Source of the DNA: a virus
Length of the DNA: 64,000 nucleotides
IMG/VR virus record: IMGVR_UViG_3300005253_000186
Span: 20,458 to 84,457 of that record
Direction: 5' to 3' (one strand)
In this document: piece after piece, positions 4,322 to 46,298 of the stretch
Layout: the number at the start of each line of letters is the position of its first letter
Numbering within the stretch: position 1 is the first letter of the stretch
The notes under the pieces: model-generated
Seen by the model: the letters and a program-made list of their open reading frames with translations, nothing else
Databases searched by the model: none
What the model was told of the DNA's origin: nothing
Position numbers and translations under genes: made by a program

Positions 4322-4329
4322 CTTATACC
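4322..4329 (-). promoter_or_regulatory. GGTATAAG phage promoter-like motif (one of 16 copies)
   Basis: same octamer at 5310, 6261, 8943, 9558, 11677, 17293, 20078, 21304, 25455, 27743, 31171, 40510, 42897, 45511, 48100, all minus strand and mostly just upstream of genes. Confidence 0.7.
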
Positions 4330-8908: not shown

Positions 8909-9009
8909 GTGGCCTCCGATCTAAGATAATGTCTTCACTCTTCTTATACCTAAAAAAGAGGGCCGAGACCTCCGAAGAAGTCCCGGCCTGAACATAACTG
9001 TAGAAGAAA

Positions 9010-26722: not shown

Positions 26723-29700
26723 TTATGCTCTCTTGATTCTCTTCTCCAGATCCCTGAGGTCCTTTCTGATCTTCCGCTTCTTCTCGAACTTCTCCCAGAC
26801 AGATCCTGGAGTCTTCATCATGAGATCCTCTGCCTGATCGGCCAGATCCTGGAGCGCCCAGAACAGATCCTCCCTTACGGGAATGTGCTGGAACTCCGCG
26901 AACTCAAGGCACTCAAGGTCCTCCTCGGAGATTGTCATGTACGGATCAGCCAGTTTCGCAATTAACTTGTTCAGCGCCACGAACTTGTTGCACATGTTGA
27001 TGAGATGAATCATATTCGGCCCTCGTAGATCATGTCTCTGACCTTGCTCATTACTTCGACCATGCCGCCGAATATTTCGTAGTTGTCGAGATCCGTTACG
27101 GTGATCGTTCCGAGGCGATAGGATGCCCTGGCGATGCGGCCCAGCATAATGCCCTGTCTAGATCTGTCCACATCCGAGATCCCCGTCTTGATCAGATATT
27201 TTTCTATCGACCTGGCGAACAGGTCGTGACCTCTGCTGCTTCGATTAACGTGCAGATCATGGCAGCATCCCCGCGAAGTTGACCCTTTTATTGAAGAAAC
27301 TCTCCACGTCCCATAGATGAGCTTCTATCGCAACGAGCAAGGCAGATATGGCTGGGTCCGGATCGCTGCCACGCATAACCGCAAGGCCGTTCCCAAAGAA
27401 GGTTTCAAGGCATGTATGTTTCAGAGAATTCCCGCGGACGCCATCGATGTACGCATCGATAGCGATCCTGTATCGTTCTACGACACAGATGGCGCTCAAT
27501 AATCTGCATATCATGACTTCTCCCTAGGTATTGGTGGAGTCGAGCGGAATCGAACCGCCGTCTCTTGGCTGCCGACCAAGCGTGCTACCATTGTCACCAC
27601 GACCCCATCGCCGATATTTTTTACGCGGCTCGGCCTAGAAGGACTTTCACCTCCACGCCGCAGTATTTGGTGGACCCGGCGGGAGTCGAACCCGCGACCT
27701 CCTGCGTGCAAAGCAGGTGCTCTCCCAATTGAGCTACAGGCCCTTATACCGGATATACCTCCGCTCGAAGTGCCACTGGATCTCTTTGGCCCAGTTGTAG
27801 CACCCATGATATGTCTGAATGATTTGCTCTGAGTTGGGCAGGCCACTATTATACAGCCATCTGACCTGATGGGCGTGCAGATTACACGCCTTTTTATTGA
27901 GGGCGGAGCCGGCCATGTCAGCGCTCAAATCCATATTTGCAATCTCGTAGAGAATGTCTGAACATCTCATCAGGGCCCCAATCATGATCACACTCCCGAC
28001 TTGATCTGCGCCTCGTAGTCCTTGTCGTAGATCGTGTTCATCTGGGTCTCCTCGATCATTTTCTTCCTCTTACTGAAGTGGGTCGACAGGCGCCTCAGTA
28101 TAATAAGGCTTTCGCGAAGGTCTGACATTAGATCGGGATCTGAATGCTTCCGTTGCATCCCGCGGAGATGATAGAGATCTCTCTGCCATAAGTAAATCTC
28201 GTCGACACGGAAGCGGCAGTAGTCGAAGTCTAGACTTTCCTTGTCGAACTGTATGACCCGGTGAAGGGCGTTCGCCTCAGAGATCATGGTTCCAATCATC
28301 CGAACTTCTTCCATTGTCCCGGCCTCCATCTCCTTCTTGCCTTCCGCTCCATGATTGCGAGCCGATACATGATCGATGAGGACTCGTGGTCTCCGAGCAC
28401 AGAGAGATCCGACCCAGCCGACTCGAATACGTCCACCCTGTACGACCAGTTGTAATCACCCCTGCCGGACATGATAAAGTTGACATGGTCCAGGACGGAG
28501 ATGATCTTCAGCAGTCTCAAGATCATTGCATCATCCTCCCGAGCTCATCTTCGGCGTCGAGGTTGTGGATCGCCTGCATTGGAAGTCCAAGGGCCCTGCC
28601 CGCCGCCCTCGCTGCAACATCTCCAGACTCGCGGTCGCCAAGCATATCGAGCTCGGCTGAGATTCTCGTTAGGCTTCCGGCCATCGATCCACTGTGCCAC
28701 TTGGGCCAGGCGCTTAGGAAATTCTGGAGATCGTCCAGATGGCCTATGATTTCCAGCAATGAGCAGATCATGGCACGACCAGAACGGTCTTCAGACTGCC
28801 CAGATAGGGCACGCTGTAGACGACGTTCGGCCCCATGGTCTCCCTTCCCTTAAAAGGGAGCATGATAGACATGCTCCTTGCCCTGCCGGCGATGCTAGCG
28901 GAGTCGTAGTCTTCCCGCGCTATAAGCTCGTCTTCAACCCGGCCAAAGGCGTGGTATCTTTTCTGCGTGTTGCAGTGAGTCCAGTTGTCGATCCAGTACT
29001 GGAGTTCGTCCAGCAGCTCAATGGTCCTGAGAAGATTGCAGATCATCCTCTCGTCCTCCTCTCGTAGAGCGCCTCTCCAATGATCGACAGGCGCAGCAAG
29101 ACTATTCTCGACTCCCGATCTCCGAAGCCCCGTATCGATCGTACCATATTGGTGAGCCTATGATGCATGGTCGTGATGTATGCCTCGAATCTGTCCATGG
29201 CGAATCGGGCATCACCCCTGTACAGAAGGATCTCCAAGCGAACCGGAATGTCTTCCGAGAGTTTTTCGAGAAATCTTGCTTCGGCCATGTGTGCGCAGAT
29301 CATCGTATTGCCGCTCCTGCCTGATGAAGAATTGCTAGCGCGTGGGCGGAGACCGTCTTGCCAGACTCTTTGAATCCAGGTTTCCTTGACATTTCTTCTC
29401 CCTTCAACCACTTCGCCATGAGCGTATCTGCCGTCCACCGGGACAACCACGCCCCTTCTCTCTTCTGACAGGAGTAGGCGATGAAGTCCGCGATTATTTC
29501 CAGCTCGTTGACTTGCTCTATCTCTTCCAGTAGCGGGCAGATCATTTAGACTCCTCCTCCGACAATCTGTCCTAGTTCGCTGTACGTCGCATTCGCCTTG
29601 AGATCTCTTACGCGCCGGAAGGTCTCCAAAATGAACCTCGCCATTTCAGTGATGGCACGGTAGGAGTTTGAGTCGCATACAACCGTGCACTCGCATCGCG

Positions 29701-30695
29701 TTATTAGATCGGCCAGCGCATCTTCGGCCTCGTGGAGGTCAATGCTGCTCATATTTGGGCATTCGAGTGACAGCCGGTTCATCGCATCGCTTACTCGTTC
29801 TAGGCAGTCTGAAGTATCCAGCAGATTGACTAGGAGAATCATGTCGTGCTCCTTAACCAAGTTACCGCCATCTAGATCTCCCGATTTCTCCAAAAAATTG
29901 CGACGATGTTATCCATCGAGCTCTCGGCGCGCCTGATGAATTCTTTGGTTTCGTTAAAGACCACATAGTCTGCCCTGTCCTTGCATGTCATTCTATGTAT
30001 ACTCCAGAACGATTCATTGAAGAAGTCCCGCATTTCGTCGACCAGCCCCATGTGGCTTCTGGCGCGCCAGCGGACTATGAAGTAGCTCATCTTCGCAGTT
30101 ATGTCGTCGACGATCTCAATCGACTCAAGGATAGGGCAGATCATATGGATCCCCCTCTTGTGTCGTAGACGAAAATGATTCGATCGACACGGCACAGCCG
30201 ATCTCCTCCAGCGTCGTGCAGTCGTGCCGCGGATGCAGAAAGTGAGCCTCTTCGATCTTTCGGCTCCCGCATATCTTGAACAACCTCTGGGCGTCCTGGG
30301 TCAGGTCGAAGGCATCGTCGAAATCGTTATTCCAGACCCCCTGCGCACCAAAGCTTTGGTGTCGCTTGAAGAGTTCTGTTCTGATAGTTTTCAGATTGAT
30401 TAGGTCCCCCATTAAGAACATCTCGGTTATTCTACTGAAAATGTCGGCCGTTTCAAGCAGTAGGCGTAGTCCCATGCGCCCTCCTGACCTTGTCTCCTCC
30501 GTGGTTCATTACCGCGGCGACCAGGCGAACCGACATGGCGTAGGTCTCTATCAGCTCCCTGGTCTGGTGCTTCGATACCTGAATACCTAGGCCGGTCGAA
30601 ATAGCGCTTAAGTCGACGAAGTTTCCCATGGAAAATAGGTTGCGCATATTTTCGGTGATGGCCGCCATCCTGAGGCAGTGGCAAAAGGGTGACAT
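26723..30695 (-). CDS. array of ~14 small helical paralogues with MI[C/L]xL[LI]xxxxx[LV][DNE]x[LI] N-terminus (26723-27013, 27010-27260 frameshifted, 27257-27514, 27734-27991, 27988-28299, 28296-28526, 28523-28771, 28768-29046, 29043-29303, 29300-29545, 29546-29842, 29872-30144, 30125-30475, 30453-30695)
   Basis: MICRLLSAI, MICSLLEII, MICNLLRTI, MICAHMAEA, MICPLLEEI, MICPILESI, MILRLLKII; ATGA overlaps; two tRNA-Ala genes embedded. Confidence 0.75.
27010..27260 (-). pseudogene. frameshifted member of the MIC-leader family
   Basis: MICTLIEAAEV in one frame continues as DLFARSIEKYLIKTG...YEGRI* in another frame; both ends overlap neighbours as ATGA. Confidence 0.7.
27532..27606 (-). tRNA. tRNA-Ala(GGC)
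   Basis: cloverleaf, G3:U70, CCA. Confidence 0.9.
27668..27743 (-). tRNA. tRNA-Ala(TGC)
   Basis: cloverleaf, G3:U70, CCA. Confidence 0.95.
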
Positions 30696-30715
30696 GGTTT
30701 GCTCCTAAAAGAAAA

Positions 30716-30791
30716 TGGTGTCGGGAGCCGGCACTGCCCCGGCGACCTCCTGTGCTTCAAACAGGCGCTCTACTATCTGAGCTATCCCGAC
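30716..30791 (-). tRNA. tRNA-Phe(GAA), atypical GGCAGTG T-loop
   Basis: cloverleaf, CCA. Confidence 0.85.
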
Positions 30792-30870
30792 ACCTATAAT
30801 CGGCGTGCCGCCGGCAGGGAGTGACCGACGACACACCGTCACATTATAGGAGATTTTATCTATATTCGGT

Positions 30871-30882
30871 TGTCAAAGAGCA
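30871..30882 (-). promoter_or_regulatory. boxA-like antitermination site
   Basis: TGCTCTTTGACA versus rrn boxA TGCTCTTTAACA; similar copies at 31144, 34499, 36625. Confidence 0.65.
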
Positions 30883-30883
30883 C

Positions 30884-31039
30884 AAAAAAACCCCGCCCTG
30901 ACTGGTCTCAGGAGCGGGGTGAAGTCGAGACCAGTCGAAGTTACGCAGGCGAATTCAGGTAGGCCAACGCCCGCGAGGACGCAATTCGGCATGCGCTAAA
31001 GCGCTGATGCCGTAATTGTTTGGCTGACCTGAGTATCAC
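30884..31039 (-). promoter_or_regulatory. leader peptide (30941-31039) plus antiterminator/terminator attenuator
   Basis: 32-codon ORF with GGAG RBS; GACTGGTCTC just after the stop is complementary to GAGACCAGTC inside the terminator hairpin, which ends in a U-tract. Confidence 0.65.
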
Positions 31040-31066
31040 CGGTTTAGCTCCGACCGGAAGAGTTTT

Positions 31067-31141
31067 TGGTAGCAGGAGAGGGACTCGAACCCTCGATCTC
31101 TACGTTATGAGCGTAGCGAGATACCGCTTCTCCATCCTGCG
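31067..31141 (-). tRNA. tRNA-Met(CAT), initiator-like
   Basis: C1:U72 mismatch, CCA; lacks the three G-C anticodon-stem pairs. Confidence 0.85.
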
Positions 31142-31203
31142 ATCGTCAAAGGGCACACTACTCTATCTTTCTTATACCGTCAAGTAGGTAGTTCCGGAAT
31201 TTT

Positions 31204-31279
31204 TGGAAGCCACGGTGGGAATCGAACCCACTAGAAGGACCCTTATGAGAGGTCCCGAGGTGCCAACCTCCTCGTGGCT
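31204..31279 (-). tRNA. tRNA with CAT anticodon (Met or Ile2)
   Basis: cloverleaf, extended anticodon stem, CCA. Confidence 0.8.
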
Positions 31280-31404
31280 ATAGCCCTGTGTACTCCAGGA
31301 AGATCATGACTGCCACAAGGTAAATGGCCATTCCGATCCAGAGAATCCAGAACTTCCACCGTGGTGTGGGTTCGAAATCCTCCATGGTCACCTCAAGGTA
31401 AAAA

Positions 31405-31481
31405 TGGTCGGGGCAGTGGGCTCCGCCCCCACGACCTCCTGCTCCCAAAGCAGGCGCGCTACTAAGCTGCGCTATGCCCCG
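31405..31481 (-). tRNA. tRNA-Pro(TGG), atypical GGCGGAG T-loop
   Basis: C1-G72, cloverleaf, CCA. Confidence 0.85.
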
Positions 31482-31487
31482 ACCTTC

Positions 31488-31739
31488 CTACATGCAGTAG
31501 GGATTACACTTTGGACACGGACAAGAGATCGCGCAGGCCTTCGAGCGCTGTCCGATTGGCTTCTTCGCCTCGTTCTTGAAGAACCGATCGACCATACAGG
31601 GCATGGTCTCTCTGCTGAGAATCGGCTGGATCACCTCGTTGAGCTTTTTCCAGAAATCATCCGGGGCTGCCGAAAACGGATCGATCCGTTCGTTAAGTTG
31701 ATCTGAGTCAATCGTTTGTAGTCTTGCGCTGTCTACCAT
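31488..31739 (-). CDS. hypothetical protein with C-terminal Cys cluster
   Basis: GAGGAG RBS; CAISCPCPKC. Confidence 0.55.
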   Translation of the reverse strand: MVDSARLQTIDSDQLNERIDPFSAAPDDFWKKLNEVIQPILSRETMPCMVDRFFKNEAKKPIGQRSKACAISCPCPKCNPYCM

Positions 31740-31749
31740 TTTCCGCTCC

Positions 31750-31944
31750 TCACTCTGGGCTTCGCAGGATTTCGATCCCAACGACATTCCCGCCCTTGTC
31801 ATAGTCGATATTGATCTCGCTGTTGATCTCAATCGTCTGTTCAATATCACGATCACGGAGTCTAAGATACGCCGCGTCTGTCTTCGGGTCCACTGATAAG
31901 ATGAATATTTTCCCACCAAATCCCGGCAACTTTGTGCTAGCCAC
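31750..31944 (-). CDS. DUF2283-like protein
   Basis: DPKTDAAYLRL...INIDYDKGGNVVGIEIL. Confidence 0.75.
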   Translation of the reverse strand: MASTKLPGFGGKIFILSVDPKTDAAYLRLRDRDIEQTIEINSEINIDYDKGGNVVGIEILRSPE

Positions 31945-32185
31945 GATTGTCGTCCCTCAGCTCTTCGATGGTCCGCAGGCCCATGCGCCACATGGCGCCC
32001 TGGATGAACCCGAGCCAGCGCATGGCTTCCTCGGTCTTCCCTGACTTCATGAGATCGATCGCTTTCAGGCACGTTTTCTTGAGATGATCCGTGAAACTGC
32101 GCTCGAATGGCACGCAGTCTACCAGATTCTGGACGAGAGTGTACTCGTAATTTTCGAGGATCTCCACAAATTGGTCCTGGGTCAT
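31937..32185 (-). CDS. conserved phage hypothetical protein
   Basis: AMRWLGFIQGAMW...TIEELRDDNR. Confidence 0.65.
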   Translation of the reverse strand: MTQDQFVEILENYEYTLVQNLVDCVPFERSFTDHLKKTCLKAIDLMKSGKTEEAMRWLGFIQGAMWRMGLRTIEELRDDNRG

Positions 32186-32577
32186 AGTTCGTTCTCGATA
32201 AAGAAGGCTATATCGGTGAAGTTCTCGCCCTTGTCGTTCATCTCGATCAAAGTAGTCTCGTCGTCATGGTCTAGGCCAGACCAACTCGCCACTTCTTTTG
32301 GGGTCTCTTCACCGCTCCCCAGATAAGATAGCTCCTTGGACATGATCTTCTTGACTTTTCCTTTGCTCCCGACGAACTTGGACTTGGACTTGTAATTTCT
32401 ACTTTCCTCCCAGCCACCGCCACTGCTCTCTTCCGCATGGATGTTGCAGAGCACGCCCAGGCAGCAGAATCCGGTCCTGCCACTACTGGTGGTCTCCGCA
32501 CACAGGGTTCCCTGGATCTGGTCATACTGGCCGCTGCGGAGCGCCGTGATCCACTTCTTTTTGACCTTCTTGTTCAT
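32182..32577 (-). CDS. conserved phage hypothetical protein
   Basis: KWITALRSGQYDQ...FCCLGVLC...MND...FTDIAFFIE. Confidence 0.7.
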   Translation of the reverse strand: MNKKVKKKWITALRSGQYDQIQGTLCAETTSSGRTGFCCLGVLCNIHAEESSGGGWEESRNYKSKSKFVGSKGKVKKIMSKELSYLGSGEETPKEVASWSGLDHDDETTLIEMNDKGENFTDIAFFIENEL

Positions 32578-32590
32578 CTTCCCCTCCTTG

Positions 32591-33037
32591 CTATTCAGAT
32601 GCCATCTTATCAATGGATCCCCAGGCCACCTCATCGTCTTGAAGCGGCTCATGTTCGGCGGCCATCTTCTCGATGATAGGAATTATATCCTGCCGGTCCG
32701 AGCGGTAGGCTCGAATTACGCACGTATCAACGTCGGCCTCAATGACTTTCCAGATTGTCGTCCACTGACCGTCGATCCATGCGTCGCGTCGTTTCCGCGT
32801 GTTGTTGGTGGCGTCGAGGATGACGACCTTGTGTCCGGCGTGGAACAGGGCGCGGACCATTGTCTTTGCGATTGCCCATACATGTGGCTCGGCCTCAGGT
32901 GCGAATCTCTGTCCGTGCAGGGCCAGGCGGATTGCGTCAGGACATACGATGGGACCTCCGTGCGCCTGGGCGAACGTGGACTTTCCACTCCGCGGGAGTC
33001 CGACCGTTCCAATCAGTACCAGTTTTATGTCGTCCAT
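32591..33037 (-). CDS. P-loop kinase (AAA_33 / polynucleotide-kinase-like)
   Basis: VGLPRSGKST, DAIR, VILDATN...RR. Confidence 0.85.
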   Translation of the reverse strand: MDDIKLVLIGTVGLPRSGKSTFAQAHGGPIVCPDAIRLALHGQRFAPEAEPHVWAIAKTMVRALFHAGHKVVILDATNNTRKRRDAWIDGQWTTIWKVIEADVDTCVIRAYRSDRQDIIPIIEKMAAEHEPLQDDEVAWGSIDKMASE

Positions 33038-34430: not shown

Positions 34431-34555
34431 CCTGCTTCACCTCCTCTCAAGAGAAAGGGTTGCAAAATAGACAGGCCCATCGCCCGTCACACTCAGATTG
34501 TCAAAGAACATAATGCGGTCGATCCCCGTAGGGACTACAGCGACCGGGGTTTTAA

Positions 34556-36606: not shown

Positions 36607-36636
36607 GCTTTCCCCCTATTCAGTTGTCAAAGATCT

Positions 36637-37375: not shown

Positions 37376-37567
37376 ATAGTCTTGACAATTCGTTCTGACG
37401 GGCCCACAGAAGACGGACTCTCTGCAAACGAGTCCTGGGCTTGAACTCTGCGTCAAGAGCAGGTTGCAGCACTTTCTTTCGCTTCTTCTTTGGCTCCCAC
37501 GGTTTCCAGTTTCTGTTCTGGTTCAGCGGGTGCGTCGGATCACAATCTATCATCGCGATCACCCCAC

Positions 37568-37706
37568 AAAAAAACCCTGCGCGCCGGTTGTCCGGCAGCA
37601 GGGTTGCTTTCGGTCAACCGCAAGGGGATTAGAGATCCCAACCCCCGACAAAACCTACTTCGGGCTTGGTCTCGGCCATCTGTGGTCGTGTCGTCTTGCG
37701 GTACAT
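37568..37706 (-). promoter_or_regulatory. leader peptide (37629-37706) plus antiterminator/terminator attenuator
   Basis: 25-codon ORF; CGGTTGACCG after the stop pairs 9/10 with CGGACAACCG inside the terminator hairpin, which ends in a U-tract. Confidence 0.65.
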
Positions 37707-37715
37707 AGTTCTAGC

Positions 37716-37745
37716 ACTGTACGACATGGCGGGAAGGGCTGTCAA
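37716..37745 (-). promoter_or_regulatory. sigma70-type promoter for tRNA cluster
   Basis: TTGACA-18-TACAGT. Confidence 0.65.
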
Positions 37746-45921: not shown

Positions 45922-46298
45922 GAAAACGACCAGATCCCAGAGCCAGCATAATCGACGGCTCTCAAGAGATACCCTTCGAGGTTGGGTATCGTCTGGACCT
46001 GCTACAGTCTATGCGAGATTACTTCGCCGAGATTTACGGCAATAAGGAACTGTTTTTTGACGTTGAGACCGTAGAGGACGAAACGCTGTGCGAATGGTGC
46101 TCCCGTCACACAGAATTTTACAACGAAGCATGCCGGCTTGTCAATGACTGTGCAGTCAGGGGACACTTTTTCGATCCTAGAGAGATTGCAAAGCTCAAGA
46201 ACTATCACCTGGAAAAGGCGCAGATGATTAGCGCCGTCCTAGTGGGGCGGGCAAATAGGAGGGCTAAAGGCACGGGCGCCGAAGCGCCCGTGCAATAG
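45915..46298 (+). CDS. hypothetical protein (lone + strand gene)
   Basis: protein-like ORF filling the gap; ends at a hairpin (46269-46293). Confidence 0.45.
   Translation: MPRKRPDPRASIIDGSQEIPFEVGYRLDLLQSMRDYFAEIYGNKELFFDVETVEDETLCEWCSRHTEFYNEACRLVNDCAVRGHFFDPREIAKLKNYHLEKAQMISAVLVGRANRRAKGTGAEAPVQ

Follow-up and report, generated by a model that had tools for sequence, protein, structure and literature searches.

The locus considered here is found in a window of 64,000 nucleotides (nt) of viral DNA, positions 20,458 to 84,457 of the IMG/VR virus record IMGVR_UViG_3300005253_000186, where it fills the interval between a gene for the transfer RNA (tRNA) tRNA-Met and one for tRNA-Phe. The record measures 84.5 kb, with an estimated completeness of 51%, and encodes the major head protein of a phage; among metagenomes it has many distant relatives, 160-195 kb in length, and near-identical DNA is carried by marine-sediment metagenome runs of three studies, one of them possibly the origin of the record. 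All coordinates of the site refer to the minus strand, on which the features named by the initial annotation of this DNA also lie. In the direction of transcription, tRNA-Met is followed by a structured RNA domain (hereafter the rod), by an intrinsic terminator and by a motif resembling the boxA of ribosomal RNA (rRNA) operons, or rrn boxA (Table 1). The initial annotation had interpreted the same interval as an attenuator controlled by the translation of a short leader peptide. With somewhat more confidence than even, we favor another interpretation, namely that tRNA-Met has for its trailer an orphan structured RNA, that this RNA ends in a default-on terminator and contains the reading frame only incidentally, and that an rrn-type boxA adjoins it.

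Table 1. Features of the interval and its borders, in the order of transcription (bp, base pairs; tmRNA, transfer-messenger RNA, is referred to in the text).
Feature	Position	Strand	Remark
GGTATAAG promoter-like motif, phage-specific	31171..31178	-	30 nt upstream of tRNA-Met #2
Degenerate boxA-like TGCCCTTTGACG	31144..31155	-	two mismatches to the 12-mer; directly before tRNA-Met #2
tRNA-Met(CAT) #2	31067..31141	-	ARAGORN; Rfam tRNA 60.6 bits, first acceptor pair flagged non-canonical
9-nt spacer	31066-31058	-	
127-nt Y-shaped structured RNA domain (rod)	30931..31057	-	P1 of 10 bp, stacked helices, apical three-way junction
P1 closing helix, 10 bp	31057-31048 with 30940-30931	-	pair probability 0.998
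32-codon GTG frame, proposed leader peptide	30941..31039	-	entirely within the rod
Competing (antiterminator) helix, 5' strand GACUGGUCUC	30927..30936	-	has 6 nt in common with the P1 3' strand
10 unpaired nt	30930-30921	-	linker between rod and terminator
Competing helix, 3' strand GAGACCAGUC	30900..30909	-	makes up terminator loop and upper stem
Intrinsic terminator	30884..30920	-	12-bp bulged stem, 6-nt loop, U7
Single G	30883	-	between U tract and boxA-like motif
rrn-type boxA-like motif TGCTCTTTGACAA	30870..30882	-	12-mer form TGCTCTTTGACA at 30882-30871
Perfect TATAAT	30843..30848	-	22 nt after TTGACA, non-canonical spacing
57-nt hairpin	30794..30850	-	directly before tRNA-Phe; arms bear CCTATAAT and ATTATAGG
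tRNA-Phe(GAA), first gene past the terminator	30719..30791	-	Rfam 51.9 bits; missed by ARAGORN
Gene with good ribosome-binding site	30695-30453	-	

The Structured RNA, Its Terminator and the boxA-Like Motif

The 135 nt that hold the rod (31062-30928) fold at -62.4 kcal/mol, compared with -39.3 ± 3.7 kcal/mol for shuffled sequences (z-score -6.23, with none of 200 shuffles equaling it), and the 275-nt spacer as a whole reaches a z-score of -7.86. Rod and terminator together constitute both the minimum-energy and the centroid fold of the full spacer, in which the lower stem of the terminator is paired with the same probability as P1 (0.998) and the competing helix with a probability of 0.0. On the plus strand, the rod folds slightly less well (-58.4 kcal/mol, z-score -5.6). 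Considering this better energy of the minus strand, and that four of the 61 pairs of rod and terminator are G-U pairs, an RNA on the transcribed strand is favored. The rod is present in a single copy in the phage record. An assignment to the T-box, riboswitch, 6S or other known RNA families was rejected since none of them matched; in a search of the whole window with Rfam, no RNA other than tRNAs and tmRNA scores above the gathering threshold.

The terminator and the perfect 10-nt antiterminator that had been announced by the initial annotation are both present, the terminator being a strong one. The G+C-rich stem of the terminator (30920-30890) runs directly into the U tract (30890-30884), the first U of which (30890) doubles as the closing base of the stem. 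A folding energy of -22.8 kcal/mol was obtained for the 35 nt of 30924-30890, and the hairpin is followed by a U run on the minus strand only, where this terminator is one of just three very strong ones in the RNA-gene region. The segment GACUGGUCUC begins at the fifth base past the TAA stop codon of the frame and is the perfect Watson-Crick complement of GAGACCAGUC inside the terminator. The probability of such a 10-nt complement is 0.0017 (20000 simulations, upstream 70 nt), and the complements at the two remaining strong terminators of this region extend over 5-6 nt only. The intrinsic terminator is preceded by a helix with which it is mutually exclusive. At equilibrium, the terminator state (-85.5 kcal/mol) is favored over the antiterminator state (-74.4 kcal/mol) by 11 kcal/mol. 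As P1 sequesters the 5' strand of the sole competing helix, termination is predicted to be the default outcome.

The boxA claimed to follow the U tract, TGCTCTTTGACA, indeed stands one base beyond it, and reads UGCUCUUUGACAA when written as RNA. The minus strand of the 84-kb record bears four copies of its core, TCTTTGACAA, the plus strand and the reversed-pattern controls none, and each of four relatives 0-1. Three of the four copies lie inside the tRNA/tmRNA region, the copies upstream of the site being at 34510 and 36636. One copy precedes a start codon by 18 nt, and by inspection none of the four has a -10 hexamer at promoter spacing.

Regarding the identity of this motif, TGCTCTTTGACAA is identical at 13 of 13 positions to the first 13 bases of the 14-mer TGCTCTTTGACAAT, for which one genome per species was scanned, with at least 120 matching stretches. 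In 15 of the 120 matches listed, a motif of the 16S 5' end lies 137-247 nt downstream on the same strand, and these 15 include, among the matches listed, Pirellulales and other Planctomycetota, Acidobacteriota, Alphaproteobacteria and Verrucomicrobiia. At all three TGCTCTTTGACAAT loci that were checked, small-subunit rRNA was confirmed by Rfam. Since the motif can thus be found in rRNA-operon leaders, it is a genuine variant of the rrn-leader boxA. The phage TGCTCTTTGACAA differs from the rrn boxA of Escherichia coli at position 9 only, where A is replaced by G. According to the report on the NusB-NusE-boxA structure, this position is a purine without base-specific contacts, is G in Aquifex and tolerates G (PMC3177189). 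With respect to the gamma-proteobacterial boxA consensus GYTCTTTAANA (PMC5725501), TGCTCTTTGACAA again deviates at position 9.

As in the rrn boxA, the NusB/NusE site that is also part of lambda nut, the motif lies among untranslated RNA genes on the transcribed strand, where a tRNA and a hairpin precede it and long untranslated RNA follows. Unlike the copies in rRNA operons or lambdoid nut sites, it belongs to the tRNA/tmRNA array of a lytic-type phage. Considering its position just past an intrinsic terminator, it would be transcribed on read-through only. In addition, GTGTGACGGG occurs exactly twice on the minus strand, at 34483-34492 just after the boxA-like copy at 34510 and at 46102-46111 just after a sigma-70-like promoter at 46144, and a shorter GTGACGG follows the TATAAT at 30848. 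These may be boxC-like or leader motifs.

A Proposed Boundary Between Transcription Units

The site is most likely a boundary between transcription units. A short unit would start at GGTATAAG (31178), pass through tRNA-Met and the 127-nt domain, and end at the terminator (30920-30884), its products being a tRNA precursor together with a structured RNA of ~180 nt, or that RNA as a stable end left after tRNA processing. Expression of tRNA-Phe and of the small genes downstream would then depend on partial read-through; alternative routes would be polymerases rendered termination-resistant by the boxA copies further upstream, or a non-canonical promoter around the TATAAT at 30848. On polymerases that read through, the boxA past the U tract would load Nus factors and shield the untranslated downstream stretch from Rho. 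In vitro, the boxA-nucleated rrn complex lowers intrinsic as well as Rho-dependent termination (PMC6614801), which allows for a model where polymerases modified at 36636 or 34510 pass the terminator at 30890 and others stop there. The structures, the statistics of the motifs and the match to the rrn-leader boxA are established here; the promoter, termination in vivo, the stability of the RNA and the binding of Nus factors are the parts of this scheme that we infer.

The motif GGTATAAG occurs 18 times in the window, compared with 0.52 expected, and 17 of the 18 copies are on the minus strand, often directly after a hairpin-plus-T-run and ahead of genes (e.g., 8943-8950 and 4322-4329). The copies at 27743-27750 and 20078-20085 lie immediately against a tRNA 5' end, an unusual position for a promoter, and the motif may serve either as a phage-specific promoter or in processing.

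A second arrangement of the same kind can be found on the minus strand at 37567-37745, where a sigma-70-like TTGACA-18 nt-TACAGT is followed by a Y-shaped RNA of ~146 nt and a strong terminator (-64.5 kcal/mol, z-score -5.26). To judge by its layout, it looks like a stand-alone small RNA gene. The two loci had been presented as unrelated sequences with the same attenuation logic. What they do have in common is the build, a structured RNA closed by a terminator; their terminators are alike in sequence, sharing ACCCYGC at the start and GGGTTTTTTTGTG at the end. As this build recurs at 37.6 kb, a peptide is not needed for the logic common to both sites.

Several points weigh against an orphan RNA with a constitutive terminator. 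A scan for canonical promoters with 16-18-nt spacing found none between the terminator and tRNA-Phe, so that read-through or an unusual promoter is required. Homologues of the domain were also sought: the covariance model gave no match among 50 related phage records, though it recovers its own sources; comparison of the DNA of 30700-31300 with five relatives returned short tRNA-like pieces only, without a homologue of the domain; blastn of 30000-33000 against 50,697 phage records produced matches only inside the tRNA genes 31067-31141 and 31405-31481; and the domain has no match in Rfam. Moreover, the perfect 10-nt complement and its 6-nt overlap with P1 are not explained by a plain constitutive terminator. 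The last point comes from X8, another sediment run, in which contigs of a ~90%-identical variant are present. One contig, over 30897-31060 (164 nt), shows 16 substitutions and no gaps, a second, over 30796-30944, shows nine substitutions and one inserted base, and a third covers 31027-31283. Differences are readable only where two overlapping contigs both carry them (30897-30944 and 31027-31060; 82 nt), and there the sole common change is 30914 C>U (minus strand), by which a G-U pair is kept in the terminator stem. It can be inferred, indirectly, that the variant has hardly altered P1, linker, competing helix or terminator and has most of its changes in the interior of the rod, a pattern which hints at selection on the switch-like parts.

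Alternative Explanations and the 32-Codon Frame

A further explanation, which we consider unlikely, if well worth keeping in mind, is an RNA-structure switch that operates without a peptide. P1 would serve as anti-antiterminator, 30936-30927 with 30909-30900 as antiterminator and 30920-30890 as terminator, and an effector, whether a protein, an RNA or a 30S subunit on GGAG-GTG, would occupy 31057-31048 during transcription of the terminator and thereby cause read-through to tRNA-Phe and the small-gene cluster. Such a switch would suit the improbable 10-nt complement that the two other strong terminators lack, the single shared change in the overlaps of the X8 contigs next to 16 changes in the contig spanning the rod, and the missing canonical promoter of tRNA-Phe. 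The layout is that of riboswitch and T-box expression platforms, with an antiterminator that shares bases both with the 3' strand of the closing helix and with the terminator. According to prefix folds, a competing helix of 7 bp appears once the polymerase is at 30900. When 31060-31025 is masked, as it would be by a 30S subunit bound at the start codon and its Shine-Dalgarno sequence, the two states become isoenergetic (-58.3 vs -57.9 kcal/mol) and the antiterminator reaches a probability of 0.25. However, when only the 5' strand of P1 is masked, this probability is 0.003, and the terminator is well ahead at equilibrium. In contrast to riboswitches and T-boxes, the domain is stable enough to form without a ligand, and the terminator is favored at equilibrium even with P1 masked. 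Models of riboswitches and T-boxes gave no match in 30600-31500 at E-values up to 10, and homologues in which covariation could be seen were not found in the relatives searched. Conditional read-through at the level of RNA or Nus factors can be regarded as a live minority possibility, and should read-through into tRNA-Phe be regulated, RNA or Nus factors are more likely than ribosomes to be responsible.

Considerably less probable is the proposal of the initial annotation itself, a ribosome-mediated attenuator that responds to how well tRNAs for rare codons are supplied. The GTG frame is present at 31039-30941 (translation V/MILRSAKQLRHQRFSACRIASSRALAYLNSPA*), and the codons ATA, AGG, TTA, CGA and CGG on which the proposal relied all occur in it. 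By relative synonymous codon usage, ATA (0.37) and TTA (0.24) are rare and CGA (0.61) is moderately so; AGG (1.56) and CGG (1.14), two of the five, are in contrast common. The further statement that its codon set complements that of the leader at 37.6 kb did not survive comparison with chance, as seven codon types are shared where 9.4 are expected (P of seven or fewer = 0.16). What speaks for an attenuator is the GGAG placed 8 nt before the GTG, the stop codon ending 4 nt ahead of the antiterminator strand, the rare ATA as codon 2, the phage-encoded tRNAs with the anticodons TAT, TAA, CCT, CCG and ACG (ARAGORN), and the occurrence of small coding genes between tRNAs, such as the 35-amino-acid frame 31385-31278.

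In its statistics, however, the frame looks like non-coding sequence. When the 183-nt spacer was simulated 5000 times with a first-order Markov model, 25% of the simulations gave a complete frame of at least 32 codons, as did 215 of 784 antisense windows of 183 nt, and the length of the GTG frame is therefore at chance (25-27%). The reference for scoring codon usage consisted of 62 long frames from the window, with 11,923 codons. The frame scores -0.265 bits/codon, whereas real 32-codon windows average +0.185 (SD 0.18), with 2.5% of 325 scoring that low; among 347 mostly spurious frames of 25-45 amino acids on both strands (mean -0.128), 81% score at least as high as the leader frame. The Shine-Dalgarno duplex, at -5.8 kcal/mol, is equaled or beaten by 22% of 1392 random start triplets, compared with an average of -8.0 kcal/mol for the long frames with their best start chosen, and pairing within the rod involves the Shine-Dalgarno sequence as well as the start codon. 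A search with phmmer for relatives of the peptide among 1.84 billion protein representatives found none. Most likely, the 32 codons are a chance reading frame inside a folded RNA.

The geometry also disagrees with the proposal. Like the trp, his and pheL attenuators, the site combines a short frame with three complementary segments that overlap one another and, before further genes, with an intrinsic terminator. In contrast to those attenuators, segment 1, the P1 strand that sequesters the antiterminator (31057-31048), is here upstream of the start codon and not under regulatory codons, so that a ribosome stalled within the frame would not block it. There is no run of cognate codons, the rare ones being scattered through the frame, and the frame has neither statistical support nor relatives; what follows is a tRNA and small phage proteins instead of a biosynthetic operon. 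The terminator was kept in every constrained fold with a ribosome footprint of 27 nt, whether placed at the start, at codons 8, 12, 16, 20, 24 or 28, or at the stop. Together with the masking results, this means that internal stalls at rare codons, as modeled, never free the antiterminator and cannot work as proposed. Solely a ribosome held at the very start could act, and in these folds only weakly: for the proposal to fit, the ribosome would have to stall right there, where ATA is codon 2, and by sitting on both the Shine-Dalgarno sequence and the P1 strand it would release the antiterminator and allow read-through. A limited literature search found neither boxA nor leader-peptide attenuation in a phage tRNA array. 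Had the evidence supported it, the leader-peptide idea would have amounted to a new kind of phage regulation.

Equally hard to credit is a composite gate on tRNA-Phe and ~14 small genes, in which a ribosome on GGAG-GTG-ATA would hold P1 open for the 10-nt antiterminator, thereby sensing initiation or tRNA supply, and host-derived rrn boxA antitermination would in addition make polymerases that read through Rho-resistant along the untranslated array.

Lastly, the interval could be an element acting at the level of DNA, a long imperfect palindrome or a 10-bp inverted repeat with a 17-bp spacer that would be a protein-binding site, a recombination site or the remnant of a small mobile palindrome. 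This explanation, which has very little probability in our estimate, can draw on the nearly equal fold of the plus strand, on a position at the mosaic boundary described below, and on the size and shape of the rod, which are like those of the transcribed intergenic imperfect palindromes of bacteria. A mobile palindromic element is nevertheless a weak rival, given the single copy in the phage record, the failure of a 21-mer from the end of the rod to match any of 185,579 species genomes exactly, the G-U pairs and minus-strand energy that favor RNA, and a position between tRNA and terminator that suits a feature of the transcript.

The tRNA Array and Its Place Among Phages

On the minus strand of the window, 32 tRNA genes and a tmRNA gene are called by ARAGORN. 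Additional tRNAs, including tRNA-Phe (30791-30719), are detected by Rfam only, and small genes are interspersed among the tRNAs, the whole array stretching over 28 kb in this window. Upstream of the site, two tRNA(CAT) genes stand in tandem on the minus strand, first 31204-31279 and then 31067-31141; the first is called by ARAGORN alone and is under the Rfam tRNA gathering score. Between tRNA-Pro and tRNA-Met, a hydrophobic frame of 35 amino acids (31385-31278, minus strand) has a strong Shine-Dalgarno sequence, and in the ~90%-identical variant of run X8 it shows deletions of 3 and 15 nt (18 in total) by which the frame is preserved; by its features it fits a real gene for a small membrane protein. 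Downstream of the terminator, the 92-nt stretch 30883-30792, which holds the 57-nt hairpin, folds at -34.7 kcal/mol (z-score -4.08). CCTATAAT is present on both strands, and with CCTATAAT and ATTATAGG in its arms the hairpin (30794-30850) has a TATAAT facing each way. The hairpin may be a site of processing or a palindrome to which a protein binds. That TTGACA-22 nt-TATAAT is an ordinary sigma-70 promoter was rejected on account of its spacing.

Regarding related DNA, the pattern formed by the pair of 10-mers had no match in viral contigs and matched 21 stretches in metagenome contigs, of which L109 (SDBT01001013.1) alone is related, being identical throughout the element. Compared with the window at 26691-32643, this contig shows 99% identity over 30444-32643 and ~92% over 27231-30488, with additional sequence at the junction between the two blocks, which points to recombination mosaicism where the small-gene cluster begins. 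No homologous locus was found with the flanking proteins in viral contigs, nor with a 194-amino-acid flank protein among 5.8 billion proteins. The closest relative having a tRNA array (genome G002, contig L090, 12775-19495) accommodates 33 tRNAs and a tmRNA in <7 kb; this array is compact and differs in gene order, and is of no use for synteny. Frames in two of its spacers look, from their sequence, like HNH endonucleases.

Should the boxA copies prove functional, the 28-kb tRNA/tmRNA array of a large lytic-type phage would be guarded by the antitermination system of host rRNA, a use of Nus factors that falls outside rRNA operons and lambdoid nut sites and of which no case turned up in the literature search. 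The nearest precedent in kind for the RNA itself is given by RNAC and RNAD of bacteriophage T4, whose tRNA region yields two small RNAs described as having no known role (PMC3014915). As in T4, a structured RNA that is not a tRNA would be found in or at the end of a phage tRNA cluster; in contrast to T4, it is a predicted RNA, and similarity to phage records extends no further than the tRNA genes. The orphan RNA after tRNA-Met, together with its sibling at 37.6 kb, would lengthen the short list of small RNAs known from phage tRNA clusters.

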